From a virus: a stretch of 64,000 nucleotides of DNA. A program made the translations under genes and the position numbers. The stretch covers positions 103,279 through 167,278 of IMG/VR virus record IMGVR_UViG_3300045988_176782. One strand, written 5' to 3'. Below the pieces are notes generated by a model, which ran no database searches, was not told the DNA's origin, and saw nothing but the letters and a program-made list of their open reading frames with translations. This document shows, piece after piece, positions 39,701-57,928 of the stretch (position 1 is its first letter; each line of letters begins with the position of its first letter).

Positions 39701-40537
39701 ATGGGATATATTTATAAAATTACTAATGATATTAATGGAAAAGTTTATATTGGTAAAACATTAAATACGGTTGAAGCAAGATGGAAAGAACATTGTTATG
39801 ATAAAGACCGGAGAAAAGTAGAAAATCGTCCGCTTTATTAGGCAATGAATAAATATGGTCTTCAGCATTTTTCTATTGAGACTGTAGAAGAATGTAAAAC
39901 TAATTTAGAAGAACGAGAAGTTTATTGGATTAAATATTATAATTCTTATATTGGTTGGCCAAATAGCAATGGTTATAACGCTACTTTAGGTGGAGATGGA
40001 AAACAATATATTAATTATGATATGATTCGTGAATTAGCAAATACAGAAAAAACTTAGGTTGAAATTGCTGCTATTGTTGGATGTAATGTTGATACTGTGG
40101 CAAAAGTTTATTTATAGGATAATCAAGAAAATTATAATTATAATAAACGGATTAGTATCGCTGTTTATCAGAAAGATAAAGATGGTAATATTATTGCAGA
40201 GTATCCAACAATAAAATCCGCCGCAGAAGCAACCTTAACTAGTCCAAGTCATATTGGACAATGTTGTGCTGGGAAACGAAAAACTTGTGGTGGTTATTAT
40301 TGGGAATATGTTAATACTAAAGAAGGTTAGACACGGCGAGCAATTAGTAATTAGCCTAAAGTAAATATCCCGCGTGAAATATTAAAATCATTAATAAGAG
40401 AACATCCTATGGAAGAAATTGGCCGTATATATGAATGTTCTGCAGCATCAATTAGACGATGTTGCGAACGGCTAAATCTTCCACGAACTAAAAAAGAAAT
40501 CAATTCTTATTCTGATGAAGAATGGTTTAAAATATAA
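39701..40537 (+). CDS. GIY-YIG homing endonuclease with C-terminal DNA-binding modules; five in-frame TAG
   Basis: MGYIYKITNDINGKVYIGKT...RPLY*AMNKYG...REVYWIKYYNS...GYNATLGG, then NUMOD/IENR-like CGGYYWEY and an HTH-like tail. ORF 39845-40057 is in the same frame. Confidence 0.8.
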
Positions 40538-40610
40538 AGTTGTTATGGTGTGAAAATCCAACCCATCAAGCCTCTTAATAATGCTCAAACCGATGGGAGT
40601 TTCATAGCTT

Positions 40611-40816: not shown

Positions 40817-41425
40817 ATAATAAAGAAAAGATATTTTTCTTTACTATATGATACCTCGGTGAAGAGCATTTGGCCAATGTGCCGAGAACAAACGGAAGAT
40901 AGCCAGCTCCATATGATGGATACATTATATGCCTGAGCCGCGAAAACAGTGATGTTTAGCGATAGGAGAAAAGACTCCAATATCAAGTTTGTGTGCTTTG
41001 TATTTCGCAATTTAACGCATAATTTCTCTGGAGAACACAATAGAAAGCAGGATGAATAGTCCTGCCGAATCCAAGGCGCCGTTAGCTGGTGACTGTCGGG
41101 GAAAAGATACGGCCTTGGAAACAACCACAAGTTCTTTTGTGATGAAACACAGAAATGTGATATAACAGAGGTTTGTAGTCTGAGTAGCTCAACACAGCGA
41201 ACAAAAAGATGATACAAATTGGCTATTGTTTCTAATTTGCTGAATGGCTTGGGTGAAAAGTGCGAGTAGTCAATCTCGTTAGAGCGTTGTTTGGATAAAG
41301 AAGTCAAGGAGTAGCTAACTTGGCTCAGCCTTTATCTTCTCTATGGCGGAATAAGATTGAAGAAATCACAAAGTAGGGCGAAGGTCCATCAGTTAGTAGA
41401 GAAAAATATCTTTTCTTTTTTTTAT
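40817..41425 (+). ncRNA. large (about 600 nt) structured RNA closed by a 25-bp terminal helix (ROOL/GOLLD-class candidate)
   Basis: 40822-40846 AAAGAAAAGATATTTTTCTTTACTA pairs with 41394-41418 TAGTAGAGAAAAATATCTTTTCTTT (one mismatch), followed by a T-run. No sense ORF. Many internal helices, e.g. CCAAGGC...GCCTTGG and GCAGGA..TCCTGC. Confidence 0.65.
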
Positions 41426-41655: not shown

Positions 41656-41781
41656 ATGGAATGGATTTTAGGAATAGGTTGTTTGGCTTTTTTGTTTGTG
41701 TTGTATAAGCCGAATATTGAAAGAATGATTTACAGCATTAAAGATTGGATTGAGAAAGGAAATAAAGAAAATGACATTTGA
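41656..41781 (+). CDS. small membrane protein (41 aa)
   Basis: AAGGAAG RBS; MEWILGIGCLAFLFVLY. Confidence 0.4.
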   Translation: MEWILGIGCLAFLFVLYKPNIERMIYSIKDWIEKGNKENDI

Positions 41782-42220
41782 AACACTCCAGCAAGAAATG
41801 TATTCTGCTATGAAGTCCGGAGATAAATTTCGTAAAGAAGTTATTTCTGGTCTTATTGCTGACATTAAGCGCGTAGCTATTGATAAAAATTGTCGTGATA
41901 ATATTACTGAAGAAGTCGTAAATACAGTTCTTCTAAAAAGTCGTAAGATGGCACAAGAAATGATTGATACTTGTCCTGAATCTCGTCTTGACCTTCTTGA
42001 ACAATATAAACAAAACGCCGTAATTATGGACGAGTATGTTCCTAAGCTTATTACAGACACAAACGAAATTGCAGCGATTATTAGTCAACTTTTAGTTAAG
42101 TTTAATGTTGAACCTGTCAAAGCTAATATGGGTAAGATTATGAAACTTTGTAAGGAAAACCTTAATGGCAAAGTTGATATGAAAATTGTAAGTAATATTG
42201 TAAAATCTATTTTAGTCTAA
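41771..42220 (+). CDS. GatB/YqeY-domain protein
   Basis: MTFETLQQEMYSAMKSGDKFRKEVISGLIADIKR...ITEEVVNTVLLKS.K...E is the typical YqeY layout. Confidence 0.65.
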   Translation: MTFETLQQEMYSAMKSGDKFRKEVISGLIADIKRVAIDKNCRDNITEEVVNTVLLKSRKMAQEMIDTCPESRLDLLEQYKQNAVIMDEYVPKLITDTNEIAAIISQLLVKFNVEPVKANMGKIMKLCKENLNGKVDMKIVSNIVKSILV

Positions 42221-42236
42221 AGAAAGGAAGAGAAAA

Positions 42237-43565
42237 ATGTCTGAACATGTAGGTTATGTTGTAAAAATTAATTCATTGCGGCCTCATTCTAATGCTGACC
42301 GTCTTCAAATTGCTACTATTTTTGACTCTAATGTTATTGTTAGTCTTGATACCCATCTTGATGACATTGGCGTGTATTTTCCTTCTGATATTCAGCTCTC
42401 TAAGGAATTTTGTAAAGTAAATGACCTTGTTCGTCGTAAAGATGAAAATGGCAATCCTGCAGGTGGCTATCTTGACCCAAATAAGCGTAATATTCGTCCG
42501 TTGAAGTTGCGCGGTGAAAAAAGTGATGGTCTATATCTGCCCATTACTTGTATGATGGAGTTCTGTCCTATTTCTGACCTTAAGGTTGGCGACACTATTG
42601 GTGTTGTAAATGGGCACGAAATTTGTAAGAAGTATATTCCCCATCGCACGAAGGCATACCATTATACTGAAAAAGTAAGGAAGCAAAAGGTTAATTTTGC
42701 TCCTACCTTTTTTGAGCATTGCGATACCGCTCAACTTGCATACAACCTTGAAGCTTTCCGTGCAGGAGATGTTGTAGAGCTAACTCTTAAAATGCACGGG
42801 ACCAGTGCGAGAATGGGCTATCTGCCTTTGCTGCAACCTCGGACTTTGCTAGATAAAATTCTTCGTCGCACTCGCAAAACTTATGGAAATGTTATTGGCA
42901 CTCGCCGCGTTGTATTGGATGAAACTCATACTGGTGGTTTTTATGAGGACAATGCTTTCCGACGCCATATTGCTAAAAAGGTTGAAGGAAAACTCCATCG
43001 TGGAGAAACTATTTATGGAGAAATTGTAGGCTTTCAAGGTCCCAATGGCGCGCCTATTATGTCTTCTGTGAAAAACTCTAAAATTTCCGATAAAGCATTC
43101 ACGAAGCAATATGGTGAAGAAACTGTATTCTCTTATGATTGTAATGCTGCGAATGGTTATGAAGATGAACATCCTTGTTGTGAATTATATGTTTATCGTA
43201 TGACTATGGTAAATGATGACGGCGATGTGGTAGATTACTCTCCTGCGCAAATCCGTTATCGTTGTGAGCAAATGGGAGTTAAAGTTGTTCCTCAATTTGA
43301 AGTATTCGTAATTCCTCAAGATGAACCCCATCCTGGTGAATATGTAGTACGTAAAGTTGAAGAATACTATGACGGTCCTGACCCTATTGGTAAAACCCAT
43401 GTACGCGAAGGCGTTGTTGCTCGTATTTTGAATCGGAATAATTTTGCGGTTTATAAAATGAAGAATTGGAACTTCAAATGCCTTGAGGGTATTGTTAAGG
43501 ATGAAGCGGCAGAACCAGATATGGAAGAAGCGCAAGAAGAACTAGTGGAGGAGCAAACTGAATGA
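42237..43565 (+). CDS. RNA ligase with N-terminal OB/tRNA-binding-like domain (Rnl5-like architecture)
   Basis: N-terminus VVKINSLRPHSNADRLQIATI (tRNA_bind-like). Nucleotidyl-transferase motif I LKMHGTS (KxHG). Confidence 0.65.
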   Translation: MSEHVGYVVKINSLRPHSNADRLQIATIFDSNVIVSLDTHLDDIGVYFPSDIQLSKEFCKVNDLVRRKDENGNPAGGYLDPNKRNIRPLKLRGEKSDGLYLPITCMMEFCPISDLKVGDTIGVVNGHEICKKYIPHRTKAYHYTEKVRKQKVNFAPTFFEHCDTAQLAYNLEAFRAGDVVELTLKMHGTSARMGYLPLLQPRTLLDKILRRTRKTYGNVIGTRRVVLDETHTGGFYEDNAFRRHIAKKVEGKLHRGETIYGEIVGFQGPNGAPIMSSVKNSKISDKAFTKQYGEETVFSYDCNAANGYEDEHPCCELYVYRMTMVNDDGDVVDYSPAQIRYRCEQMGVKVVPQFEVFVIPQDEPHPGEYVVRKVEEYYDGPDPIGKTHVREGVVARILNRNNFAVYKMKNWNFKCLEGIVKDEAAEPDMEEAQEELVEEQTE

Positions 43566-45901: not shown

Positions 45902-46022
45902 GTGGGGTTAGTGTAATGGCAGCACGTTGGTTATAAGTGAGTCTTGGCAAAGAGTCATCAGCAATTATTCTTTCTTGCAGGGAGCCCGAAGGACAGGGTT
46001 CAATTCCCTTGACCCTACACCA
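45902..46022 (+). ncRNA. tRNA-like gene with oversized anticodon/variable region (about 121 nt), encoded CCA
   Basis: Acceptor GTGGGGT/ACCCTAC plus A plus CCA. U8, D arm GTGT-AATGGCA-GCAC. T-arm-like CAGGG-TTCAATTC-CCTTG. About 45 extra nt between the D and T arms; anticodon not assignable. Confidence 0.4.
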
Positions 46023-46603: not shown

Positions 46604-47164
46604 ATGACGCCTAAAGAATTGGGTCAATTATTTGTTGATTTAATAGAAATTGATGATAATGGTTGTTCTCCTCAAATTTATATGAAAGATTTAGTTGAAA
46701 TTGAACCAGAATTTCGTACTACTAATGGTTCTCAATGGAGCCGAGCTAATGGTTGGCTAGGAAAACAGTATTTAATTCAAAAAACTTATAAATCTGGACG
46801 AGTTGATTCAATTCAATTAGTAGGCAAAAATACTTCAAATGAAAATCATTCTGTTCCTGCAGAAGTATATGCTTATTATAAAGGAAAGCCTTGTGTTTTC
46901 ACAGGAACAACAAACAATATTGAAATTGACCATAAAAATGCTCGTTATAATAATTCAGAATATACAATGGCCGATTTTCAGCCTGTATGCAAAATGATGA
47001 ATGATATTAAACGAGAAATTTGTAAAAAATGTCGTCTAAACAAACTTAGGCCAAAAGCATCTTCTCTTGGCTTTTTAAAAGATTTTATTTCTGGCGACGA
47101 AAAATCTGAAACTTGTCAAGGATGTTATTATTATGACCCAATTGAATTTAGAAGAAACCTATAA
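46604..47164 (+). CDS. HNH/beta-beta-alpha-Me nuclease-like protein (candidate restriction endonuclease)
   Basis: NNIEIDHKNARYNN plus Cys pairs CKKC...CQGC. Overlaps the methyltransferase gene. Confidence 0.45.
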   Translation: MTPKELGQLFVDLIEIDDNGCSPQIYMKDLVEIEPEFRTTNGSQWSRANGWLGKQYLIQKTYKSGRVDSIQLVGKNTSNENHSVPAEVYAYYKGKPCVFTGTTNNIEIDHKNARYNNSEYTMADFQPVCKMMNDIKREICKKCRLNKLRPKASSLGFLKDFISGDEKSETCQGCYYYDPIEFRRNL

Positions 47165-47861
47165 AAATCAAAGCTGTTTTGAGTTCCTTCCTACTATTCC
47201 TTCTAAATCCATTAATCTTATTCTAATTGACCCGCCATATGAAATTTCTCGCGCCACTAATTTTCAAAGTGGAGAAGAAACTGGAACTGATACTGACCGT
47301 TTTCGTATCTCTATGGATTTTGGCGATTGGGATAAGAATTTTTTTGGCTTAGAAAAGGTTTTTAAAGAAGCACAGCGGATTTTGGTTGATGGCGGCACAA
47401 TGATTTGTTTTTATGATTTATGGAAAATTGAAACAATTAAACAATATTATGAAAATAATAAGTTTAAACAAATTCGCTTTCTTGAATGGATTAAAACCAA
47501 TCCTGTGCCAATTAATAGCAAAATCAACTATTTAACTAACACTCGTGAAGTTGCGGTTTTGGGAATAAAAAAATCTAAACCAACTTTTAATAGTTCATAT
47601 GATAAGGGAATTTATGAATATCCTATTTGTCATGAAAAAGGCCGCTTCCATCCCACACAAAAGCCATTAGAGTTAATGGAAGCTTTGATTCTAAAACATT
47701 CTAATGAAGGCGACACTGTTTTAGATTGTTTTGCAGGAAGTGGCACAACTGGTGTTGCTGCGATTAAAAACAATCGGAAATTTATTGGTTGTGAAATTTC
47801 TCCAGAATATTATTCTCAATCTTTGGAACGACTAAAAAATTTGACAAAAATGAAAAATTAA
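47133..47861 (+). CDS. DNA methyltransferase, beta-class (N6A or N4C)
   Basis: LILIDPPYE (motif IV) near the N-terminus, and VLDCFAGSGTTGVAA (motif I) near the C-terminus. Confidence 0.8.
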   Translation: MTQLNLEETYKNQSCFEFLPTIPSKSINLILIDPPYEISRATNFQSGEETGTDTDRFRISMDFGDWDKNFFGLEKVFKEAQRILVDGGTMICFYDLWKIETIKQYYENNKFKQIRFLEWIKTNPVPINSKINYLTNTREVAVLGIKKSKPTFNSSYDKGIYEYPICHEKGRFHPTQKPLELMEALILKHSNEGDTVLDCFAGSGTTGVAAIKNNRKFIGCEISPEYYSQSLERLKNLTKMKN

Positions 47862-47869
47862 ATTATAAT
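47841..47869 (+). promoter_or_regulatory. promoter TTGACA-N17-TATAAT for the tRNA island
   Basis: -35 at 47841-46 (inside the end of the MTase CDS), -10 at 47864-69. Confidence 0.65.
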
Positions 47870-47882
47870 TAATACATAATGA

Positions 47883-47945
47883 ACGGCAGATACAGCAAAT
47901 TTTTAAGCTTGTGATTAGGGATTACAAATGCGATTTCCTGCCGTG
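47883..47945 (+). repeat. AAGAC..GTCTT-type element, covarying variant (E3)
   Basis: ACGGCAG-ATACAGCAAAT...CTGCCGT-G: same core, different but complementary flanks. Confidence 0.6.
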
Positions 47946-47950
47946 TTTAT

Positions 47951-48024
47951 AGGCGAATAAGATAATGGTAGTCCCGCGCTCTCCAAAAGCGTTCGTCCCT
48001 GTTCAAATCGGGGTTCGCCTGCCA
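47951..48024 (+). tRNA. tRNA-Trp (CCA anticodon), CCA end encoded
   Basis: Acceptor AGGCGAA/TTCGCCT. Anticodon stem GCGCT/AGCGT, loop CT-CCA-AA. T arm CCCTG-TTCAAAT-CGGGG. Confidence 0.75.
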
Positions 48025-48029
48025 AAATA

Positions 48030-48108
48030 AAGACGCATACAGCTAATATTTTGGTTAAAAAGTTTTCTACAAAAAAGCTTAAGAGATTCAATTTCTCAAT
48101 GCGTCTTG
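48030..48108 (+). repeat. AAGAC..GTCTT element copy (E4)
   Basis: AAGACGC-ATACAGCTAAT...GCGTCTT-G-TTTTT. Confidence 0.6.
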
Positions 48109-48115
48109 TTTTTAT

Positions 48116-48190
48116 GGCTCGTTAGCCTAGTGGTTTAGGCAGTAGACTGTTAATCTACCTAGGCTGGTTCAATTCCAGCACGAGCCTCCA
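48116..48190 (+). tRNA. tRNA-Asn (GTT)
   Basis: Acceptor GGCTCGT/ACGAGCC. D arm GCCT..AGGC. Loop CT-GTT-AA. T arm GCTGG-TTCAATT-CCAGC. CCA encoded. Confidence 0.85.
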
Positions 48191-48412
48191 TTAATTCAAT
48201 AATACGCGTGAGGCCGCGGTGCATATTGGCAAGAACAAGTATCATGAACTCAGCGCCCGAAGGAGAGGTAAATATCGGTTAACTACCGAGGCGCACCTAT
48301 GTGATGAATTGGACCCTTTCAAGTTGAAAGACACCTACGAGGGAGACGACGGAATAATTGGCCGCCTTTAAACGCTTGTCCATGAAAATGGCACTATTAT
48401 TGAATATTTAAA
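48191..48412 (+). ncRNA. structured RNA of about 220 nt closed by an 11-bp helix
   Basis: ATTCAATAATA (48194-204) pairs with TATTATTGAAT (48395-405). The interior is visibly GC-richer than the genome, with several complementary segments. No ORF. Confidence 0.45.
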
Positions 48413-48624
48413 AAACTCTGTCCTCAACGTGGATCGGAAAGTAATTTGCCTATTATTATAGGTAAGTCCACGACCTGATAATAGGTAAATTATGAAGTTT
48501 GTAACAGTGTTCTTCAAAATAACTTCTGAACAGCGGCATAAGAGCCACGCCAGAGGAGCGGATTGGTGTGAAAGATAGAGAGTTGCAATTATCTATTTAT
48601 TCACAGGCCATAAAGAAGTTATAT

Positions 48625-48740
48625 GCCAAGGTAGCTTAATTGGTAGAGCAATAGAGTAAAAAGGAATCTTGTAAAAGATTTTGGCCGCGATTGTTTATAT
48701 TTGGGTCTGTGTGTTCTCGGTTCAAGTCCGAGCCTTGGCT
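48625..48740 (+). ncRNA. tRNA-like gene with a 43-nt insertion in the anticodon loop
   Basis: Canonical acceptor GCCAAGG/CCTTGGC, D arm GCTT-AATTGGTA-GAGC, anticodon stem ATAGA/TCTGT, 5-nt variable region and T arm CTCGG-TTCAAGT-CCGAG. The loop is 50 nt and contains the hairpin AATCTT-GTAA-AAGATT. The 3' loop part ATTTGGG would give anticodon TTG. Confidence 0.45.
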
Positions 48741-48747
48741 TTACCAT

Positions 48748-48824
48748 TGCGGAGTAGAGAAGTGGTTTATCTCGTCAGCCTCATGAGCTGAAAAACGGAG
48801 GTTCAAATCCTCCCTCCGCAACCA
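48748..48824 (+). tRNA. tRNA with CAT anticodon (Met or Ile2)
   Basis: Acceptor TGCGGAG/CTCCGCA. Stem TCAGC/GCTGA, loop CT-CAT-GA. T arm GGAGG-TTCAAAT-CCTCC. CCA encoded. Confidence 0.8.
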
Positions 48825-48892
48825 ATAGAACTTTGAAAAACTTTATCCTTTGCCAAGTTTACCATAAAGAGGGTTTAAAGGCGAGGTCATGA

Positions 48893-48967
48893 TGCTCAAT
48901 AGCTTAACGGTAGAGCAGCGATTTCATAAGTCGTTAGATATAGGTTCAAATCCTATTTGAGCAACCA
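48893..48967 (+). tRNA. second tRNA with CAT anticodon (Met/fMet/Ile2)
   Basis: Acceptor TGCTCAA/TTGAGCA. D arm GCTT..GAGC. Loop TT-CAT-AA. T arm ATAGG-TTCAAAT-CCTAT. CCA encoded. Confidence 0.8.
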
Positions 48968-49093
48968 AGCGCTACACAGATTCCCACTAAACTACCACTG
49001 GCGTCTCAGACCCAATAGGAGAGCGGCGATATGTAGCTTGCGGAAGCGCTATATAAGAAGCGAAGTAAGTGGTGGGCGGTTTACCGCCCGATA

Positions 49094-49167
49094 TGCGGGT
49101 GTAGCTCAATGGTAGAATTCTAGCCTTCCAAGCTGGTTACGTGGGTTCGATTCCCATTACTCGCTCC
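49094..49167 (+). tRNA. tRNA-Gly (TCC)
   Basis: Acceptor GCGGGTG/TACTCGC. Stem CTAGC/GCTGG, loop CT-TCC-AA. T arm GTGGG-TTCGATT-CCCAT. CCA encoded. Confidence 0.8.
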
Positions 49168-49431
49168 AATTGATTTCAAGTAGAACAAGTTAGCTTCTTG
49201 TGAAAGAAATCTGCGCTATGACTACGGAAGACAGCGAGTCAGGGTTTGTAGAATTTTCCATACAATTCTACCGTGAACCAGTTCAATTACTGTTGCTCTG
49301 CTCTGCGACTGCGTGAAGGTCGGTTAAAAAGGTGAAGCGGGTTATTACTGCTTCCAAGAGGAGTAAGCGGGAGATGGGCGCAAAGTCTGCGGTGAGTCTA
49401 AATCCGTGCTAGCAAAATAGACCAATATTAT
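49168..49431 (+). ncRNA. structured inter-tRNA spacer (264 nt)
   Basis: No ORF. Perfect hairpins GTAGAATT..AATTCTAC and GATTTC..GAAATC. GC-richer than the flanks. Confidence 0.35.
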
Positions 49432-49506
49432 GGCTCCGTAGTCAAGCGGTTAAGACGCTGGGTTTTCATCCCAGAGACGCGAGTTCGACTCTCGCCGGAG
49501 CTACCA
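49432..49506 (+). tRNA. tRNA-Glu (TTC)
   Basis: Acceptor GGCTCCG/CGGAGCT. Stem CTGGG/CCCAG, loop TT-TTC-AT. T arm GCGAG-TTCGACT-CTCGC. CCA encoded. Confidence 0.8.
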
Positions 49507-49511
49507 TAGTA

Positions 49512-49611
49512 AAGACACAGGTTAAACAGCAATACTTATAGTGGTTAATAAAATTTTTGTTGTATAAAATTTTTAATGGGTTCAAATCCCACAAAAGAAC
49601 CCTGCGTCTTG
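49512..49611 (+). repeat. AAGAC..GTCTT element copy with inserted T-arm-like remnant (E5)
   Basis: AAGACAC...AACAGCAATAC...TGGGTTCAAATCCCA...GCGTCTT-G-TTTTTT. Confidence 0.5.
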
Positions 49612-49617
49612 TTTTTT

Positions 49618-49708
49618 GGAAAGGTGGCTGAGTTGGTTTAAAGTGACAGATTGCTAATCTGTTGAGGGATTTTCCCCTCCGGAGGTTCAAATCCTCTCCT
49701 TTCCGCCA
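49618..49708 (+). tRNA. tRNA-Ser (GCT), class II
   Basis: Acceptor GGAAAGG/CCTTTCC. Stem ACAGA/TCTGT, loop TT-GCT-AA. Long variable arm. T arm GGAGG-TTCAAAT-CCTCT. CCA encoded. Confidence 0.85.
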
Positions 49709-49711
49709 TAT

Positions 49712-49790
49712 GTGCGCGAGTAACCGAATTGGCATAGGTACTGGTCTAAGAAGCCAGGTTTTATGAGTTTAAGTCTCACCTTGCACACCA
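49712..49790 (+). tRNA. atypical tRNA, anticodon AAG (Leu codon CUU) but short variable region
   Basis: Stem CTGGT/GCCAG, loop CT-AAG-AA. Acceptor GTGCGCG/CTTGCAC has one mismatch. Irregular D arm. CCA encoded. Confidence 0.45.
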
Positions 49791-49793
49791 TTT

Positions 49794-49853
49794 AAGATAC
49801 TAATAACGATTATTATTTTCTTTACAGTTTTTAAAGAACAAGAATGTGTCTTG
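49794..49853 (+). repeat. AAGAC..GTCTT element, divergent copy (E6)
   Basis: AAGATAC...GTGTCTT-G. Confidence 0.4.
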
Positions 49854-49858
49854 ATTAT

Positions 49859-49933
49859 GGGGCAGTGACGCAATGGTAGCGTGTTAGCTTTGCAAGCTGA
49901 AAGTTGAGGGTTCAAATCCCTTCTGCTCCACCA
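49859..49933 (+). tRNA. tRNA-Ala (TGC)
   Basis: Acceptor GGGGCAG/CTGCTCC. D arm ACGC..GCGT. Loop TT-TGC-AA. T arm GAGGG-TTCAAAT-CCCTT. CCA encoded. Confidence 0.85.
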
Positions 49934-50053
49934 GACGTGCCAGTTTCTCCGATGGCCGTATAACTTAGAAATAAGTGAAGCAGAAAGTAGCTATTTTGCA
50001 TCGGAAAGCAAGTCTCCTTATTCCTTGCCATACATAAAAGAATAAGGACGCGT

Positions 50054-50130
50054 GCGCTGATAGCCCAATTGGCAGAGGCAATAGACTTAGGATCTATTCA
50101 GTGAGAGTTCAAATCTCTCTTGGCGTACCA
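50054..50130 (+). tRNA. tRNA with TAG anticodon (Leu CUA/CUG) but class I short variable region
   Basis: Acceptor GCGCTGA/TTGGCGT (3 wobbles). Stem ATAGA/TCTAT, loop CT-TAG-GA. T arm GAGAG-TTCAAAT-CTCTC. A73, CCA encoded. Confidence 0.6.
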
Positions 50131-50133
50131 TTT

Positions 50134-50198
50134 AAGACAGTTACAGCAAATCCTCAAAAGATGCGATTGTTAAAATTACGTTATTATTTACTGTCTTG
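50134..50198 (+). repeat. AAGAC..GTCTT element copy (E7)
   Basis: AAGACAG-TTACAGCAAAT...CTGTCTT-G. Confidence 0.6.
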
Positions 50199-50204
50199 CT
50201 ATTT

Positions 50205-50268
50205 CGGGATATAGTGCGATGTGCTGATAACATGCAAGTCGCGGATTCAAATCCCGCCCCTGTAACCA
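50205..50268 (+). ncRNA. truncated tRNA-like element (CUGAUAA loop, T arm, ..ACCA tail)
   Basis: Loop CT-GAT-AA at 50224-30. T-arm-like GCGGA-TTCAAAT-CCCGC. No convincing 5' acceptor strand or D arm. Alternative long hairpin CGGGAT...ATCCCG. Confidence 0.3.
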
Positions 50269-50269
50269 T

Positions 50270-50345
50270 CGGGGAATACGTCAATTGGCAGACGGCTTGC
50301 TTTGGGAGCAAGCAGCTCTCAGTTCAAATCTGAGTTCTCCGACCA
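50270..50345 (+). tRNA. tRNA-Pro (TGG)
   Basis: Acceptor CGGGGAA/TTCTCCG. D arm CGTC..GACG. Stem CTTGC/GCAAG, loop TT-TGG-GA. T arm CTCAG-TTCAAAT-CTGAG. CCA encoded. Confidence 0.85.
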
Positions 50346-50398
50346 GAGGAATTTATAATCCTTTTTCATAACAAATGGGAGAATTTCTCCCATCTCCT

Positions 50399-50468
50399 TG
50401 GCCGCAAGTAGAGAAATGTTATCTCACCGTTTTAACGGAGTAGGCGGTTCAATTCCGCCCTCGGCCAT
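50399..50468 (+). ncRNA. aberrant tRNA-like element with a 6-nt TTTTAA anticodon-type loop
   Basis: Good T arm GGCGG-TTCAATT-CCGCC and 6-bp acceptor TGGCCG/CGGCCA. The anticodon-type stem CACCG/CGGAG (one mismatch) encloses only TTTTAA, and the variable region is too short. Confidence 0.3.
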
Positions 50469-50598
50469 TAGTCGCCCTGGCACAGGGAGAAATGTGTTGC
50501 TCGGTAGGAGGGCATCCGCGGAGAATATACTATCCTACACAAAACAAAATGGGACTGATGCAGGTCCCACTTATAAGGGGAAGTTCCCCTTTTAATAT

Positions 50599-50684
50599 GG
50601 AGGAGTGGCGGAATGACGAGACGCAGTTGACTCAAAATCAACCACGAAGAAACACTGAGAGTTCAAATCTCTTCTCCTCTACCA
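50599..50684 (+). tRNA. tRNA-Leu (CAA), class II
   Basis: Acceptor GGAGGAG/CTCCTCT. Stem GTTGA/TCAAC, loop CT-CAA-AA. Long variable arm. T arm GAGAG-TTCAAAT-CTCTT. A73, CCA encoded. Confidence 0.85.
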
Positions 50685-50690
50685 GGCCTT

Positions 50691-50765
50691 AAGACAGATC
50701 AGCAATTTATTTAGATGAATGCATTTTTCACCTCCAAGGTAGGCTCTTGGTTGTATCCTGTCTTG
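50691..50765 (+). repeat. AAGAC..GTCTT element copy (E8)
   Basis: AAGACAG-ATCAGCAATTT...CTGTCTT-G-TTTTT. Confidence 0.55.
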
Positions 50766-50793
50766 TTTTTATTTCATATGAAAGGAACTAATT

Positions 50794-51033
50794 ATGATTA
50801 GAGCAAATATTGAATTAATTACTGCTACTGACATGCGAAGTTTTATTTCTTGTGTTAATAGCGATGGCACCGCAGACAAGTATACTCTTGAGAATTTTGA
50901 TGGCAGTTATCGTGCTGATGCACGTTCTATGTTAGGTGTTGCCTACGCGACCGCGGAATTTGATAGTTTATTTCTTGTTAATAGAATTCATGATGGTGTT
51001 TTTCCAAAAGGTATTGATAAATTTCGTAAGTGA
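50794..51033 (+). CDS. hypothetical protein
   Basis: Intact ORF with RBS. Confidence 0.5.
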   Translation: MIRANIELITATDMRSFISCVNSDGTADKYTLENFDGSYRADARSMLGVAYATAEFDSLFLVNRIHDGVFPKGIDKFRK

Positions 51034-51065
51034 AGTCGTAATGTAATATTACGACTTTATTTTTT
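51034..51065 (+). terminator. intrinsic terminator
   Basis: AGTCGTAAT/ATTACGACT hairpin plus a T-run. Confidence 0.75.
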
Positions 51066-51092
51066 GACAAAAGTAAATTTTTCTTTTATAAT
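51064..51092 (+). promoter_or_regulatory. promoter TTGACA-N17-TATAAT
   Basis: -35 at 51064-69, -10 at 51087-92. Confidence 0.7.
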
Positions 51093-51113
51093 AAAAGAAA
51101 AGGAGATAAAAAC

Positions 51114-51386
51114 ATGATAAAAAGTGTGCCTATTAAATATGAAGAAAGTATTGAAGTGCAACGTTTATTTCATAAGTATAATGCATTGCTTGCAGTTTTG
51201 GCTTATATGAATGATAATAGTTCTAAATATACAGATTTTTTAGATAAAAAAGTGAATGAAGCTACCGAGTTATATATTGAATTAGAACAAGCAAAAGATA
51301 AATATGGCATGCGATATAAGCCACAAGGTGATTGGCAACATTATACTTTTGACTTTGATAATAATGTTATTATATATGAGGATTAA
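51114..51386 (+). CDS. small accessory protein of the CXXX-repeat modification locus
   Basis: AAGGAG RBS; 90 aa; directly precedes the rSAM maturase (TAAATG junction). Confidence 0.5.
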   Translation: MIKSVPIKYEESIEVQRLFHKYNALLAVLAYMNDNSSKYTDFLDKKVNEATELYIELEQAKDKYGMRYKPQGDWQHYTFDFDNNVIIYED

Positions 51387-52691
51387 ATGAAAAAGTCTTA
51401 TTTAGATTTAATTGCAACTTTATATTCAGAACCTGATTTACGAAGTTGTAGAAACATTACCTTATAGGTTTGCGATGATTGCTGTTTAAAATGTTCATAT
51501 TGCTATCAAATTCATAAAAGCCACAATTATATGACAAAAGAGACTGCAAAAGCCATTATTGATTTACTATTTAGAATGTATGATGAAGATAAGCCAGACG
51601 CATTTATCAATCATACAACTCATGGTATAATTCTTGATTTTATCGGTGGCGAGCCTCTAATGAACGTTGAAATTATGGAATTTGCTACTGAATACTTTAT
51701 TGACCAATGTTTGCAAAAAAATCACGAGTGGCTTTATAATTTTCGCACAAGTTTTGCAACAAATGGTATTCTTTATTTTGAACCAAAAGTATAGGCATAT
51801 TTACAAAAATTTCACAATTTTATTTCTATGACCGTTAGTATTGATGGCCCAAAAGAAATTCATGATATTTGCCGTCTTGACCGTGATGGTAATGGTAGTT
51901 TTGAACGAGCAAGTACCGCGGCGCACCATTATTGGGAATATTATGGAAAAGATGTCGGGGGACGAGATGAAACTAAAGTTACCATTGCTCCAGACAATTT
52001 ATCTCAATTAAATAAAATTGTAGATTATTTCTTAAATGAAGGCGTTACAGTGATTAATGCCAATCCAGTTTATGAAGTAGAATGGACAGTAGAATAGGCA
52101 AAAATATATTATAATGAATTAAAAAAATTAGCAAATAAATTGTTATTAAATTTAGAAATTAAATGTAGTATTTTTGATAGCCATTAGAACGTCCCCTTGC
52201 CTATTAGTGATAATACGAACTGGTGCGGCGGTGATGGACATATGTTAGCTTTTGACCCGCACGGAAATGCTTATCCTTGTTTGAGATATATGGAAAGCTC
52301 TTTAGGTGGAGAAGTTGAGCCTTTAATTATTGGTGATACTAATGGTATTTATAATACGCCAGAAAGTCAAGAAATTAGGTGTAAACTTTGTACATTAACT
52401 CGTAGTAATTAGTCTACGGAAGAATGTACGCATTGTTCAATCGCCGCGGGCTGCTCTTGGTGCAGTGCTTGGAATTATCAGCAATTTAAAAAGATCGGTA
52501 AGCGTAGCACGAATATTTGTTGGATGCACCGAGCCGCAGCATTGGCCAATGTCTATTATTGGAATCTTAAATACCGTTTAGAAGAAAATGAAAAAAGATT
52601 CCCAATTTATCTTGAACAAAAATATGCTTTGTAGATAATACCCTCTGAAGAATATGATTTGTTGCTTTCACTTTCTCAATGGGGAGAGTGA
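51387..52691 (+). CDS. radical SAM/SPASM peptide maturase (CXXX-repeat-target type candidate); six in-frame TAG
   Basis: ORFs 51531-51794, 51828-52097 and 52197-52412 are all in the frame of ATG 51387. ITL*VCDDCCLKCSYCYQ (CxxxCxxC). C-terminal CGGDG...PCLRY...CTHCSIAAGCSWCSAWN is SPASM-like. Confidence 0.75.
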
Positions 52692-52696
52692 TATTT

Positions 52697-53239
52697 ATGA
52701 GCTGGCTAAAAGGAGATAAAATTACAGCAGAGGATTTCATTGCTATTAAAGAAAAAGTTAAAAACGAATTAGCTCGGCGAAATGCAGAAGGAAGTGTAGC
52801 AAACTATGCAACGAGCTATACTGATATGCCTGTATAGAAAGGGAAAATAAAAGTTAGCCATATTACAGAAATTGTTGAACCATTGAGTCATATTAATAAT
52901 GTAGATTATGATTTAAATAAACCAATTACAATAAAATCTTTAACTACAATTCAAACAATGTTAAATAGTTTAACCACAGCAGAAAAGGCTGCATCAACAT
53001 TAGAAGCAACCGGGTGTAAAGCTTCCTGCACTGGTTTATGTTATACATCTTGTTCAGAAACGTGTCGTTCTTGTGGAGATAGTTGCAGTCAAAATTGTGA
53101 TACTGGATGCAATTGGACTTGTAAAGGGTCATGCCGCAATACTTGTTCTGGACGCTGCAAAGGTAGCTGTGGAACTACTTGCCAATTGGGCTGTTCTAAC
53201 AATTGCAAAGGAAGCAGTGTAGGTGGCTGTTCTGCATAA
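52697..53239 (+). CDS. CXXX-repeat protein: tail-fibre-like N-domain plus C-terminal run of 18 Cys; one in-frame TAG (52835)
   Basis: MSWLKGDKITAEDFIAIKEKVKNEL N-terminus. C-terminus CKASCTGLCYTSCSETCRSCGDSCSQNCDTGCNWTCKGSCRNTCSGRCKGSCGTTCQLGCSNNC (15 of 17 spacings are exactly CxxxC). Confidence 0.7.
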
Positions 53240-53476
53240 AATATACAGTAAATTAAATAAATATTAAGTGCTATAATGATCGAACAAAAATTTATTCCTT
53301 TAATAATTCAATATAATATATTCAATATATTAAATACTAAATTGCTTGTATTATTAGATTTGATTTTCCTAACCACAAAACCGTTGCTTTAGAATCTATT
53401 ATAAAATAAGGCATAGAATAATTTCCTAATTTTAACCTAAAACAAATTTAATCTAGGAGCTTCGTTGCTCCTACTT

Positions 53477-53550
53477 GCCGAAATAGCATAATGGTAGTGC
53501 AAGGCTCTTGTAAAGCTTAGATTTCAGTTCAATTCTGAATTTCGGCTCCA
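53477..53550 (+). tRNA. tRNA-Thr (TGT)
   Basis: Acceptor GCCGAAA/TTTCGGC. D arm GCAT..GTGC. Stem AGGCT/AGCTT, loop CT-TGT-AA. T arm TTCAG-TTCAATT-CTGAA. CCA encoded. Confidence 0.85.
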
Positions 53551-53992
53551 TTTAACCAGACTGAGAGTTAGAGGTAAATACCTGCTCGTGATGATTTTAA
53601 ATGTAATCATGAAAACCTCATAAAATATGGCACGCAGAGAGCTAGGCTCTACAATGGAAACGCTATACGAGATAGGAGACCCCTTACAGACGTAACAGTG
53701 TATGCCAAGATGCCGCGGCATAAGGTGCAATTCCTGAGTAATTGGTGTCGGCAAGTCCGAGCTGTTTTAAAGGAGCGGGCAGAGCGCAAAAATATGATGG
53801 GACAACTGCTTACCTCATATTTTGCTCAGTAGGCGGTCGTGCCGCAGGAAGGCCCACAGGTATGTGGAGTATAGCAAGTCGGGGAGTTAGATGCAAGCCA
53901 GAATTGGGTTAGAACCGACAGGGAGAATAATTCTCTAACAGAGTAAAGGTATGGATGCGGCAATGAGACGCGACCTTTACTCTTTTTATTTT
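53551..53992 (+). ncRNA. structured RNA of about 440 nt between tRNA-Thr and the DUF2828/Ro-like gene, ending in an intrinsic terminator
   Basis: No sense ORF; GC-richer than the surroundings. Long-range GTTAGAG (53566-72) / CTCTAAC (53927-33). T-arm-like GTCGG-CAAGT-CCGAG. Terminal hairpin AGAGTAAAGGT...ACCTTTACTCT plus a T-run. Confidence 0.5.
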
Positions 53993-53997
53993 AAAAT

Positions 53998-54026
53998 TTG
54001 ACTTTTCTAAAATTTTCTCCTATAAT
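53998..54026 (+). promoter_or_regulatory. promoter TTGACT-N17-TATAAT
   Basis: -35 at 53998-54003, -10 at 54021-26. Confidence 0.7.
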
Positions 54027-54087
54027 ATGTCTATAAAAGATAAGCAATAGCTCTATTGCTTCCAAAATGAAAAGGAGAAAAGAAAAC

Positions 54088-55575
54088 ATGAATAATCTAC
54101 TAAATTCCCTAAAGCAAGAAACCAACTATACCTACACCACCAATGGCGCAGTAGCGCACAAATCTACCCTAAACAAAGTCCTTGATCTATTTGCCCTTGG
54201 CGGCGCTTATCGTGTAAAGAGTGACAATGACGTTATTCTTCTCTTTAAAGAAGCATATGACGAGAATCCTGAACTCGCGCTAAAGTGCTTGTTCTTTATT
54301 CGTGATATTCGCGGCAATGGTTATGGTGAACGTCGCTTTTTCCGTGTATGCCTTCATTGGCTTGCTACACAACATCCCGAAGTTGTGAAGCGAAATATTA
54401 ACTATATTCCATTTGTTGGCCGTTATGACGACCTCTATGCTATAATGGATACTCCTTGTATGCTGGATGCTTTTACTTTCTTTGATCGCCAACTGCGACT
54501 TGATATGGAATGCCAAACTCCCAGTTTATGTGCAAAGTGGATTTGGTCAATGAATTGTTCTTCTGCCGAACATAAGAAATATGGTAAGGCACTTGCAGAT
54601 TATATGCGTTTAACTCCTAAGCAATATCGTAAGATGCTTACTGGTTTGCGCGCGAAGATTAAGATTGTTGAAACTCTAATGTCTCAGAATCGTTGGGATG
54701 AAATTCAATTTGATAAATTACCTTCTAAGGCCGGCTTTAAGTATCGTAATGCTTTTGCAAAGAACGATTACACTAAAGAACGCTATGAAGCCTTTATGAA
54801 GTCTAAGACCACTAAGGTAAATGCAAAAACCTTATTCCCCTATGAAGTCGTAAAGCAAGCTATTAACGCTGATTGGCAAGATGAACTAACCTGCAATACT
54901 CTTGAGAAGTATTGGGAGAATCTTGCTGACTATTTCAATAATGCTACTTTTAATGCTCTGGCCATTGTTGATACTTCTGGTTCTATGCGTAGTGGTGCTG
55001 CTTCCGCCGCGCCTATTGATGTGGCAATTTCTCTTGGTATGTATTGTGCGGAAAAAGCTAATGGTCCTTTTAAGAATCATTATATCAGTTTTTCCTCTAA
55101 GCCTCAATTGATTGAAATTAAGGGTGTCAATTTTGTTGACAAGGTTCAGCGTATTTACCAAACTAATCTTTGTGAAAATACTAACATTGAAGCTACTTTT
55201 GATCTTCTTTTAAATAATATTGTGAAGTATAATTTAAATGAAGAAGATATTCCAGAGTATCTTGTAATTATTTCCGATATGCAGTGGGACGAAGGGGTTT
55301 GTGAAATTCGCGGGCGATACTATATGCCTGCGGCGAATCCTCAAACTTTAATTGACCAAATTAAAGAAAAGTGGAAAAGTGTCGGAATAAGGATGCCTAA
55401 ATTAATTTTCTGGAATGTCAACGCAAAACATCCTGTCATCCCTGCTCTTGATGGAAATTACAGTTATATCAGCGGCTTTAGCCCCGCGATTTTTGAACAA
55501 ATTATGACCGGTAAAACCGGCGTAGAACTAATGCTTGAAGCACTAAGTTCTGAACGTTATAAAGACATTCATTAA
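54088..55575 (+). CDS. DUF2828-type protein: helical-repeat N-domain plus C-terminal vWA (Ro60/TROVE-like architecture)
   Basis: YTTNGAVAHKSTLNKVLDLFALGGAYR N-terminal signature. MIDAS IVDTSGSM. GGAGAA RBS before ATG 54088 (ATG 54067 is also in frame). Confidence 0.6.
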   Translation: MNNLLNSLKQETNYTYTTNGAVAHKSTLNKVLDLFALGGAYRVKSDNDVILLFKEAYDENPELALKCLFFIRDIRGNGYGERRFFRVCLHWLATQHPEVVKRNINYIPFVGRYDDLYAIMDTPCMLDAFTFFDRQLRLDMECQTPSLCAKWIWSMNCSSAEHKKYGKALADYMRLTPKQYRKMLTGLRAKIKIVETLMSQNRWDEIQFDKLPSKAGFKYRNAFAKNDYTKERYEAFMKSKTTKVNAKTLFPYEVVKQAINADWQDELTCNTLEKYWENLADYFNNATFNALAIVDTSGSMRSGAASAAPIDVAISLGMYCAEKANGPFKNHYISFSSKPQLIEIKGVNFVDKVQRIYQTNLCENTNIEATFDLLLNNIVKYNLNEEDIPEYLVIISDMQWDEGVCEIRGRYYMPAANPQTLIDQIKEKWKSVGIRMPKLIFWNVNAKHPVIPALDGNYSYISGFSPAIFEQIMTGKTGVELMLEALSSERYKDIH

Positions 55576-55601
55576 GAGAGCTTAGGCTCTCTTATTTTTT
55601 T
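55574..55601 (+). terminator. intrinsic terminator
   Basis: AAGAGAGC/GCTCTCTT hairpin plus a T-run. Confidence 0.75.
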
Positions 55602-55616
55602 AGGTGGTGAAACTTT

Positions 55617-57911
55617 ATGAGTGGAGGATTTTCTGGCGTTGGCGGCTATGCTGTTATTCTAACTCCAGAAGGCGCATCGCTATATGGCGGCGGAAATGCA
55701 AGTTTTGAAGCACTTGTCACTGCTGCAACAGGCCAAATAGATATTGAGGCAACAACATAGGAAATTCTTGCTATTTTATATTAGCAATATGAAGAACAAA
55801 CAATAATAGAAAGGAATATACGGGCAGCTTATGGCAATGAAACTATTGAAAATATTATAAAATCCTTACGCGGAGAAACTTCTAAAGTAATGAGCGGCAC
55901 ACCAGAAATGATACAAAATCTTAAGCAAAATTTGGCCGACTGGCAGAACAAAGAAAAGAGTCGTAAAGAAACAATCGCCCAAATTCGTGGAGATTCTGAA
56001 CATTATTATCAAGTTTATAATACTTTAGTAGACGGATTAGTTGCCTTAGCTAATCAATTAACTAATATGGATGAAAAAGCATTACGAACTGGTCCTGGTA
56101 TCATTGAAACATTAATTCATAAATGGGAAAATTCTTCCAGTCAATTAGAGCAAGAAGCCGCGAAAATGGCGCAATCTTTTTCCAAATTAGATTTAGATAA
56201 TGAATCATTTATTAAAGATATGAATAGTACCTTTGACAAAATTAGAGAGACAATTAACAAAGAAGACATGGCCTATTCTTATGACCCTACTTCTAATACC
56301 ACTGAACTTAAAAATCCAGAATTAACCGCGGCTATTTAGGAATTACTTGCCTTTCAAGAAAAAATCCGCAGTGATATAGATAAAAAAAGTAAACGCAGTA
56401 AAAAGAAAAAACAAAGACTTCTTGCTATGTGGAATAATATTAAATTTGCCAATTGGAATGCAAGAACCAGTAAACTTGGTCAGGCATTAAATCAAAAAGG
56501 TAAAAACGACCCAATGATAATTTTAAATAGTTTAAGGCAAAAAGTCTATGATGTGGCTAAATAGCAATTAGAGGAAAACACTGGACGAAAAGCCACAGAT
56601 AAAGAGCAACAAAAACTTCGTTCTTCAATTACAGAAATTCAAACTAAAGCTGTCAATGAGCTAAGTGAACAAACTAAAGACTATGCAGTACGGCAACTTA
56701 TTTCACTTGTATTTGGCGACCAAGCACAAATTGGTCCATTAAAAGGACTACTTGCCGAGCAATTTAAAACTGCAATGGCTAAATCCTATATACAAGATGT
56801 AAATAATTCAGTTCAGCAAGCCTATCAATAGGCCATTGGTGCAGTATGGGAAGAAATTATAACAAAGCTTTGGCTAACAGGGAAAGATACAAGAAATGTA
56901 AAAATATTAGTACCAGGCCCTGAAGACCTTAAAGACATAGTATAGTCTGATGATGATTTAAGAATAGGAACAGATATTAATGCTTTTGATAATGAAAATA
57001 AACGGTATGGCACGCAACATCGTTTAAAGCGAACGAATGAAGAAATTTTTAAAGGCTATCAAAAAAATAAGAATAAAAAAGATGCCCTTAGCGTTTCATA
57101 GCGCGAACTCAAAACTTGGTTAAAGTCAATTAGCGGGAAAAAAGATTTACCAAACTTACAAGCAAGTTTAGACAACTATTTTAATGAAAATATTATTGAC
57201 CTCCCTTCTATTCAAAAACAATTTGATAAAGTAGATAGTGTTCAAGCGGCGACAGTGGGAAAGAATCCATATTACATTGCTTTCTCAGAAAAGCAACGTA
57301 CTGCAGGTGGTATGACTGGTTCTATTGGTTTAATGGGCGATGATATTAGCAGATTTAATAATATGAAAGCTTCTGGAACTAATTTATATAGTTCTTTAGA
57401 TTTAATTAGTTAGAATGGTTCAGACAAATCTATTCCTACTGCACAAATAATGTTCGCAATGCTGAATCAATCTACTGCTTCTATATATCATGGTGATGCT
57501 GGTGTTCAGGAGTAGATAAGAAATTATATTAAAATGCAACTTGCGGCAAAAGTATTAGATTTGGCATTTAATAGAGTAAATTTTTTCTTCAATCAGCAAC
57601 AAAAAGGTATTGATATGAATCAAAAAAATACTCTATTTGTTATGAATGTTAATAATCTTTATGTCTCTTCCACGGCCATATTACGCGGCCTTATTGAAAA
57701 ATTTCAAAATTATCAAGACGTAATTGCTGACATCGTTTATGTTAATGTAGAATTTGATACTGCCCACCAAGCTTATCCCCTATGGATGACCGCGATTGCA
57801 AGTCAAGGTGGCGGCGATGCAAATCAAGCAGCCCGTTGGGGATTTGTTGCTAATCAAGTTGCTGCTAATACTAAATTGAATGTTTCTCTCAGCATTGCAA
57901 ATTTAATGTAG
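55617..57911 (+). CDS. large (764 aa) virion-type protein, nine in-frame TAG
   Basis: ATG 55617; ORFs 55890-56339 and 57534-57911 are in the same frame, and the frame stays open throughout if TAG is read as sense. Confidence 0.6.
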
Positions 57912-57928
57912 TTATTTGATTTTTAAAT

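Follow-up and report, generated by a model that had tools for sequence, protein, structure and literature searches.

A 64,000-nucleotide stretch of viral DNA (IMG/VR record IMGVR_UViG_3300045988_176782, positions 103,279 to 167,278; hereafter the window) carries a tRNA gene, X1, whose anticodon arm is interrupted by an insert of 43-44 nt. We found that this insert belongs to a conserved homologous family, whose members interrupt five or more phage tRNA bodies within positions 28-34. The sequences suggest that these inserts are short, protein-dependent phage tRNA introns and that X1, ancestrally a tRNA-Pro(UGG), is split just 5' of its anticodon, a reading that we hold with moderate confidence. 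More tentatively, we propose that they form an undescribed class of phage tRNA introns, carried by phages of Firmicutes and of other hosts. These introns would consist of a hairpin plus a tail, occupy variable sites 5' of the anticodon, and be excised by a dedicated bacterial or phage endonuclease before resealing by a phage YqeY-RNA ligase pair.

X1, an interrupted tRNA gene conserved among related phages

The features of X1 are as follows.

48625-48740 (+): X1, the whole insert-bearing tRNA gene, ancestrally a tRNA-Pro(UGG), lacking an encoded CCA; recognized by Rfam RF00005 and by ARAGORN in intron mode, 11 variants
48625-48655 (+): 5' exon (acceptor 5' strand, D arm, anticodon-stem 5' strand ATAGA)
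48656-48699 (+): insert, putative intron of 43-44 nt, defined by in-silico removal, which restores a tRNA in relatives, and by the family alignment
48657-48662 (+): A-rich lead of the insert, UAAAAA, near-invariant in X1 variants; UAA(A/U)AA in other family members
48663-48682 (+): hairpin GGAAUCUU-GUAA-AAGAUUUU, supported by the covariation count and minimum free energy folds; unique in the window
48685-48691 (+): tail motif CCGCGAU (family consensus C-N-G-C-R-A-Y), from the family alignment
48692-48705 (+): fast-evolving 3' part: insert end, rich in A/U, then UUUGGG (48700-48705), what remains of the anticodon loop
48706-48740 (+): 3' exon (anticodon-stem 3' strand, variable loop, T arm, acceptor 3' strand, discriminator U)

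The acceptor stem of X1 (GCCAAGG/CCTTGGC) is followed by U8 and A9, then by the D arm (GCTT-AATTGGTA-GAGC) and A26. The anticodon stem is ATAGA/TCTGT, with one G-U pair; the variable region is GTGTT, the T arm CTCGG-TTCAAGT-CCGAG and the discriminator T. An initial annotation of this DNA had described 48625-48740 as having standard stems and a 5-nt variable region, and the sequence is exactly so. It also had the anticodon stem enclosing 50 nt (48656-48705) that include the hairpin AATCTT-GTAA-AAGATT; this too was confirmed, and the hairpin lengthens to 8 pairs, GGAATCTT/AAGATTTT, at 48663-48682. Because bases repeat at its ends, the boundaries of the insert are uncertain by 1-2 nt. In the tail, C30 and G32 do not vary in the family alignment A2, and C33 hardly does. 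The variable 3' segment has no complementarity to anything else in the window.

The Rfam tRNA model (RF00005) matched X1 over model positions 1-71 of 71 with a score of 48 bits (gathering score 29, E = 3.7e-8). ARAGORN did not call the gene in its default, bacterial mode; with introns allowed, it called a tRNA-Phe(aaa), placing an intron of 43 nt at 37/38. Similarity of the tRNA body was uninformative for isotype assignment.

Relatives of X1 were collected by searching public contigs for its T arm and acceptor stem, and from the loci around homologues of two proteins described below, the Ro-like protein and the RNA ligase. This yielded 11 distinct sequence variants on about 25 related contigs, and the insert is present in every one. 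Among 7 variants, 3 of the 31 columns of the 5' exon vary (3-4 among the relatives as a whole), as do 2 of 27 in the lead plus hairpin and 2 of 35 in the 3' exon. Variation in the lead and hairpin is thus as low as in the exons, which shows that the 5' two-thirds of the insert are as constrained as the tRNA body. A wide alignment of the flanks was useless as a neutral yardstick, owing to rearrangements outside 48401-48747. A search of GenBank phages yielded no close DNA relative; only the neighbouring tRNA-Met was matched.

Related inserts in other phage tRNA genes

Inserts of the same design were found in tRNA genes of several isotypes, on unrelated phage contigs from phages of about 40-165 kb. 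Their alignment reveals a lead UAA(A/U)AA, a hairpin of 6-8 bp, 3-5 nt, the tail C-N-G-C-R-A-Y and 6-8 A/U-rich nt, for a total of 39-47 nt. The hairpin consensus is GAAUCUU-GUA(N)-AAGAUU, and X1 has the form GAAUCUU-GUAA-AAGAUU. The pairing is supported by covariation: 89.8% of cells are paired, compared with at most 63.7% for slid partners, and 3 pairs change on both sides, observed values that were reached by only 0-4 of 500 shuffles. Compensatory changes include A-U to G-C in a second gene of the window (X2, below) and C-G to A-U in a unit of a tandem array on contig L175, also described below. The bare 16-base hairpin was a poor pattern for scanning, giving more than 120 matches, mostly by chance.

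The 155-kb contig L053 carries two insert-bearing tRNA genes in tandem (10899-11018 and 11026-11138), and L141 and L147 carry one gene of the family; the Rfam tRNA model gives scores of 52.6 and 40.6 bits for these genes. These intact tRNA genes with related inserts, together with the conservation of the insert in 11 variants of X1, show that the locus is no decaying pseudogene with random indels, the outcome that the initial annotation had seen as fatal to its proposal.

The window holds a second insert-bearing gene.

45902-46022 (+): X2, insert-bearing tRNA-like gene ending in CCA; its orthologue in L203/L204 is called by ARAGORN

The X2 module reads UGAGUCUU-GGCA-AAGAGUCA, then UCAGCAAU. 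The window copy was detected neither by ARAGORN in default mode nor by Rfam. X2 is kept in 8 variants among the relatives, with L136 and L210 the only ones to show a canonical anticodon arm (TTGGT/GCCGA, loop UUGAGGA); that of the window is non-canonical.

Four other functions for parts of the insert were considered and dropped by eye, as the features concerned are not conserved across the family: pairing of the A-rich lead with the tRNA-Lys anticodon loop, a Shine-Dalgarno sequence with a start-stop mini-ORF, a K-turn or sarcin-ricin motif, and a PUF-like UGUA site.

In-silico removal of the insert restores anticodon arms

We removed the insert in silico from each gene and examined the anticodon arms formed by the joined exons.

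L141: tRNA-Lys(UUU); stem CGGGU/ACCCG; loop CUUUUAA; insert between 28 and 29
L053, first gene: tRNA-Thr(UGU); stem ACGGC/GCCGU; loop AUUGUAA; insert between 29 and 30
L053, second gene: tRNA-Met(CAU); stem ATTGG/CCAAT; loop AUCAUGG; insert at about 33/34
X1, majority form: tRNA-Pro(UGG); stem ATAGA/TCTAT; loop UUUGGGG or UUUGGGA; insert from 31/32 to 33/34 (ambiguous)

Directly after the insert of the Lys and Thr genes come the bases needed to finish the 5' strand of the anticodon stem, so that the junctions are unambiguous in these two genes; there, the insert opens with U-A-A and closes with several A. Completion of the stem by chance in two independent genes is very unlikely, which shows that it is real tRNA genes that the inserts break up, on the 5' side of the anticodon. 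After removal, the loop has seven bases, with U at 33 and a purine at position 37, in 6 of the 11 X1 variants, in L141 and in both L053 genes. Since removal restores perfect anticodon arms, the anticodon must lie 3' of the insert. The predicted exon-exon junctions are GGTAGAGCAATAGA followed by TTTGGGGTCTAT in the relatives of X1, ...AATAGAG followed by TTTGGGTCTGT in the window, GAGCGCG followed by GGTCTTTTAAACCCG in L141, and GAGCAACG followed by GCATTGTAAGCCGT in L053. Brute-force deletion with ARAGORN as judge was too permissive to fix the splice sites.

The initial annotation had offered two anticodons for X1, depending on where the insert is excised: TTG (Gln) from the 3' side or AAA from the 5' side (GTAAAAA). 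The 3' side is the one supported by the relatives, in which UUUGGG(G/A) forms the loop of a tRNA-Pro(UGG). The AAA of the 5' side, which is also the intron-mode call of ARAGORN, was rejected: UAAAAA is the conserved start of the insert, a lead common to the inserts of different tRNAs. As for TTG, it is one of two ways to read the window copy, which differs from the majority form by the change of A32 to G and the loss of one G (UUUGGG). Its loop would be either a defective one of 6 nt or, should G32 belong to the exon, the 7-nt loop GUUUGGG, whose anticodon is UUG. The latter, a possible reading but a derived state, needs the 5' cut to be shifted by one base in the 3' direction relative to the other phages of the lineage. 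Having lost one loop G, X1 of the window may be a poor decoder.

Proposed splicing pathway and candidate enzymes

If the inserts are introns, X1 would be transcribed with the rest of the tRNA array from the promoter at 47841, and ordinary tRNA end-processing would free it from the array transcript. An endonuclease, presumably a protein, recognizing the hairpin and tail would then cut the insert out at two sites; the insert is too small for self-splicing and lacks a bulge-helix-bulge. The two tRNA halves would be held together by the acceptor, D and T arms until an RNA ligase sealed them. For inserts located within the stem, this ligase would act on a nicked duplex. As candidate sealer, the phage itself encodes a pair of a YqeY-like protein and a ligase at 41750-43565.

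47841-47869 (+): perfect sigma-70-type promoter, TTGACA-17 nt-TATAAT, at the head of the tRNA array
41750-42220 (+): YqeY-like protein, a domain akin to the tRNA-binding tail of GatB (PF09424, E = 9e-25)
42237-43565 (+): ATP-dependent RNA ligase, candidate exon sealer (phrog_968, E = 3e-65; PF09414)
62070-62831 (+): calcineurin-like phosphoesterase, possible RNA end-healing enzyme, weakly linked to X1 (PF00149, E = 3e-10)

The ligase gene is located about 5 kb upstream of X1. It has about 8000 homologues, many on phage contigs of 150-180 kb, and the YqeY-like gene always stands directly upstream of it. In GatB and some GlnRS enzymes, a YqeY-type domain forms the tail that binds tRNA. The initial annotation had mentioned an RNA ligase together with end-healing-type enzymes. 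The ligase is indeed encoded, and the end-healing part is reduced to the one phosphoesterase, as the scan of the window proteins revealed no polynucleotide kinase domain. Relatives have genes homologous to this phosphoesterase in the vicinity of the ligase. In the more distant ones, the ligase is accompanied by metallophosphoesterases and a P-loop kinase (AAA_33), a composition that corresponds to an RNA repair cassette. A sequence search of the PDB with the ligase and the phosphoesterase gave no matches.

Module copies not associated with a tRNA gene

A degenerate copy of the hairpin-and-tail module stands alone upstream of X1.

48560-48603 (+): degenerate solo module copy, 103 nt upstream of the insert (direct repeat D1, 76% identity over 17 nt)

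The surrounding spacer (48401-48624, plus strand, 224 nt) has 16% variable columns and is thus as conserved as the tRNA exons. It folds better than its shuffles (z = -3.78) and may be a further non-coding RNA.

A motif scan of 185,579 species genomes returned mostly chance matches, one conserved protein-coding word and a single locus, L175 (JAYTXX010000109.1). This 5-kb contig of 25% G+C, binned as Bacteroidota, possibly wrongly, encodes an 885-residue Hsp70-like protein. At 3694-5060 it contains at least 23 tandem units of GAATCTTGTAAAAGATTTACACTGCAAT, as well as a compensatory variant GAATATTGAAAAATATTCTTACTGCAAT, spaced by 50-60 nt. By eye, about 34 of 41 bases are alike between the X1 insert in its L127 form and one L175 unit, a similarity that goes beyond the search pattern and includes GCAAT(A/T)ATTTATATT after the tail. 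The segments between units are related to one another. The contig contains neither a cas gene nor a tRNA, and searches for the repeat in IMG/VR, GenBank phages and plasmids gave chance matches only.

Weighing splicing against other explanations

A number of observations weigh against the intron reading. X1 lacks the CCA that is encoded by all 12 tRNAs called by ARAGORN in the array, and that also stands just past the annotated end of the tRNA detected by Rfam only at 49714-49787. Its G1-C72 pair and U73 mismatch A73 and C1-G72, which we take to be the identity set of E. coli tRNA-Pro. Variation is concentrated in the 24 nt that precede the 3' stem, where 9 columns vary among 7 variants, with an indel, and 14 among all 11, compared with a fraction of about 0.13-0.15 elsewhere. 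The L001 and L132 variants have UUUGGUA before the 3' stem, with a U at position 37; the L002-type variant (5 loci) has UGUGGG, a 6-nt loop; and in L216 a 12-nt deletion has taken out the anticodon together with the 3' stem but spared the insert and the body. This pattern of decay in the X1 lineage fits weak selection on decoding. The splice sites could not be put at one fixed distance from the hairpin across the family, the flanks being 2-3 nt shorter in the L053 tRNA-Met. No protein is shared between the window and the partial loci of L053, L141 and L147, where Pfam was uninformative. No domain of a tRNA-intron endonuclease (EndA/Sen), and no other endonuclease candidate, was seen in the approximately 45 window proteins scanned. 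Finally, the comparison with insert-less homologues that the initial annotation had envisaged had nothing to work on, as patterns built on the T arm and acceptor stem retrieved no intron-less allele of the X1, L141 or L053 genes.

The main rival, which we consider possible but doubtful, is that X1 gives a tRNA-scaffolded hairpin RNA that stays unspliced. The tRNA body would ensure RNase P processing and 3' trimming as well as stability, and the hairpin and tail would be a payload for a protein of phage or host, acting for instance as decoy or cofactor; decoding would have been lost or be dispensable. Such a scaffold agrees with the conservation of body and hairpin beside a decaying anticodon region, of which L216 is the extreme case, with the missing CCA and with the non-canonical anticodon arm of most X2 variants. 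It is also favoured by the module copies free of any tRNA, namely the L175 array and 48560-48603, by a normal and thus redundant tRNA-Pro(UGG) in the same array (50270-50345, ARAGORN), and by the surroundings of X1, a non-coding RNA island with a ROOL RNA, an abiF motif and a Ro-like protein. On the other hand, the flanks still encode perfect anticodon arms, with U33 and purine 37, in L141, in both L053 genes and in 6 X1 variants, which would be unexpected if decoding were irrelevant. Moreover, no binding partner was identified, and the Ro-like gene is unlinked to the element in L003 and L004, which both have the gene but lack the element. The intron and scaffold readings are not exclusive, since splicing could give both a tRNA and a stable hairpin RNA.

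The genes could also be dead, broken by a small non-autonomous mobile element such as a REP-, MITE- or PATE-like hairpin, and their transcripts functionless. The same module of about 40 nt does occur in different genes and at differing positions, in tandem in L175 and as a solo degenerate copy, and the anticodon region decays in both X1 and X2. We nevertheless judge this explanation unlikely. The insert always has the same orientation and always lies within nucleotides 28-34 of the tRNA, and there are no terminal inverted repeats, target duplications or common target word at the junctions. In addition, several lineages have intact exons, the neighbouring 3' segment is much less conserved than the tRNA body and the hairpin, and the genes are kept at the heads of tRNA arrays behind strong promoters.

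Still less probable is a CRISPR-repeat mimic, akin to an RNA anti-CRISPR, or a guide-like RNA displayed on a tRNA, in which hairpin and tail would be the repeat and the variable 3' segment a short spacer. The L175 units, each a hairpin followed by ACUGCAAU, are indeed separated by variable segments of 15-30 nt and include a compensatory unit GAAUAUU...AAUAUUC; no part of X1 evolves faster than the segment that follows the tail; and solitary repeat units encoded by phages are known (PMC10651486). But the L175 contig is devoid of cas genes, and its 'spacers', being related to one another, look like duplications rather than acquisitions. L175 was the sole array with the motif in the species genomes scanned, the repeat had no genuine match in GenBank phages or plasmids, and in three carrier genes the would-be spacer is the rest of the anticodon arm.

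An archaeal- or eukaryal-type intron cut by a splicing endonuclease at a bulge-helix-bulge, or a degenerate self-splicing group I intron, is hardly credible: only the short length and the ARAGORN placement at 37/38 speak for this reading, whereas other members are split at 28/29 and 29/30, the scanned proteins lack a tRNA-intron endonuclease domain, and a scan of all junction pairs in 6 family members, carrying out the bulge-helix-bulge search that the initial annotation had suggested, found no candidate common to the family, the single one in the window leaving a 2-nt loop. Group I introns, which splice themselves and have conserved paired regions, measure about 200 nt or more. They are ruled out by the length of 43 nt (39-47 in the family), far below that size, by the single hairpin and by Rfam, which at E ≤ 1 (47500-54000) matched the tRNA family and no intron or ribozyme. 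Small ribozymes, Y RNA and tmRNA were likewise rejected, having no Rfam support. The view of the initial annotation that introns this short are of the archaeal and eukaryotic kind is thus not borne out by the bulge-helix-bulge scan or by the insertion sites, and short inserts in phage tRNAs have a precedent in the Lak megaphages (PMC6784885).

Genomic context

The window belongs to a phage genome of about 165 kb and about 35% G+C, with tail-fibre genes. Its host belongs to the domain Bacteria, as its lysis genes (SpoIID, NlpC/P60-SH3) are of Firmicutes type. X1 lies within a tRNA array at 47951-50684, to which a further gene at 53477 is added. Besides the tRNAs called by ARAGORN, the array includes an extra one at 49714-49787 (+), seen by Rfam only (39.5 bits). 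An IceA-like (NlaIII-type) endonuclease and an N6/N4 DNA methyltransferase are encoded directly upstream of the array (46604-47861, +); this restriction-modification pair is missing from some relatives (L213, L215).

Several RNA features precede the YqeY-ligase pair. A 90-nt tRNA with anticodon CUA and a long variable arm, lacking CCA, is located at 39464-39553 (+). Between this suppressor tRNA and the YqeY-ligase pair stands a ROOL RNA (40831-41406, +; RF03087, 295.8 bits), one of the large ornate RNAs of phages and Firmicutes. Just upstream of ROOL, an abiF RNA motif was detected at 40562-40598 (+; RF03085, 49.9 bits); it could mimic an RNA that accompanies the abortive-infection gene AbiF of the host.

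If TAG is taken as a sense codon, 18 open reading frames of at least 120 codons cross 1-10 in-frame TAG codons, for example at 39692-40537, 51387-52691 and 55617-57926. With TAG translated as Gln, the six products tested show coherent Pfam domains (GIY-YIG + NUMOD, NlpC/P60 + SH3, SpoIID, radical SAM). Frames that run through TAG and yield coherent domains indicate that the phage recodes this codon.

Downstream of the array, a radical SAM enzyme with 6 in-frame TAG is followed by a Cys-rich CxxxC-repeat protein (51387-53239, +), whose orthologues in relatives carry the annotation PF27846 (tSAM_targ_Cxxx_rpt). Together they look like a phage-borne peptide-modification pair. A Ro60/TROVE-like protein (phrog_850, DUF2828 + DUF7788) is encoded at 54067-55575 (+), and in L208 its homologue adjoins the RNA ligase. 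Rfam found no Y RNA or YrlA, either in the whole window at the gathering score, including the 2.3 kb that follow the Ro-like gene (55600-57900), or in 47500-54000 at E ≤ 1. In the relative L004, ARAGORN reported a tRNA-Gly(gcc) with a 755-nt insert (9057-9882), which may be a group I intron with an open reading frame or a false call.

Significance and comparison with known systems

Self-splicing group I introns are generally held to be the only introns in tRNA genes of bacteria and bacterial viruses, and we know of no machinery there that removes short tRNA introns. If the inserts are spliced, they would reveal a third, bacterial-domain route of protein-catalysed tRNA splicing; the maturation of certain phage tRNAs would depend on phage enzymes, and a functional hairpin RNA would perhaps be released. 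If they are not, X1 would parallel in nature the engineered tRNA scaffolds, and phages would use it to express a small hairpin RNA. As the family is defined by sequence, with a common hairpin and tail in several isotypes, two unambiguous junctions and a candidate for sealing in the YqeY-ligase pair, the question can be put to the test. Since ARAGORN and tRNAscan in bacterial mode miss these genes, phage tRNA repertoires are undercounted.

Group I introns, to our knowledge the only established type in bacterial tRNA genes, likewise interrupt the anticodon loop, but the insert of X1 is a 43-nt element with one hairpin. The non-canonical tRNA introns of archaea, processed by EndA, resemble the proposed introns in being short and protein-dependent, in occupying varied positions and in sometimes lying in the anticodon stem. 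They differ from them in that here there is no bulge-helix-bulge, no EndA-like gene was seen in the window and the host is bacterial.

Engineered tRNA scaffolds and the YrlA-Ro60 system share with X1 a tRNA fold that carries a foreign module at the anticodon loop, and a Ro60/TROVE-like protein is encoded 5 kb downstream of X1. YrlA is circularly permuted, with its ends at the position of the anticodon arm, and bears a Ro-binding helix. In contrast, the X1 RNA ends in the acceptor stem, and no Y RNA was matched in the Rfam scans run. The tRNA repair system of phage T4 (Pnkp/Rnl1) offers another parallel, since a phage RNA ligase encoded near tRNA genes could rejoin the halves of an anticodon arm. 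It repairs damage done by a host anticodon nuclease, whereas here two deliberate cuts would remove an encoded insert.

The closest parallel is found in the Lak megaphages, whose tRNAs contain 'enigmatic', highly conserved introns, phage tRNA introns having been previously unreported according to the same authors (Devoto et al. 2019, Nat Microbiol, PMC6784885). X1 matches the Lak pattern: its anticodon region holds an insert of tens of nucleotides that is conserved in relatives, and its exons rebuild a tRNA. Both kinds occur in stop-recoding gut phages, in the anticodon region of the tRNA, with lengths of tens to about 110 nt and conservation between related genomes, and both lack an Rfam match and a known splicing route. 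The Lak inserts, however, lie 3' of the anticodon and contain either an entire tRNA-like unit or a minihelix resembling a T arm (Table S6, PMC6784885), while those described here are 39-47 nt long, stand 5' of the anticodon, sometimes in the stem, and have a specific hairpin plus tail common to different isotypes and unrelated phages. The hairpin words GAATCTTG/AAGATT occur in the Lak intron table only by chance (PMC6784885).

An insert of Lak design was observed in L141 itself, at 1113-1246 (L147 260-393, minus strand). There, a type II Leu-like tRNA has an insert of about 50 nt in its anticodon loop, with a T-arm-like hairpin ACGAG-TTCAATT-CTCGT between CTTCAA and TTGAAG; this minihelix might be a substrate of RNase P and RNase Z.

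In the literature, we found no precedent besides the Lak introns (PMC6784885) and no paper that explains such introns. As the inserts of X1 and its relatives differ from them in sequence, architecture, position and range of isotypes and phages, they constitute a new family of a known but unexplained kind.

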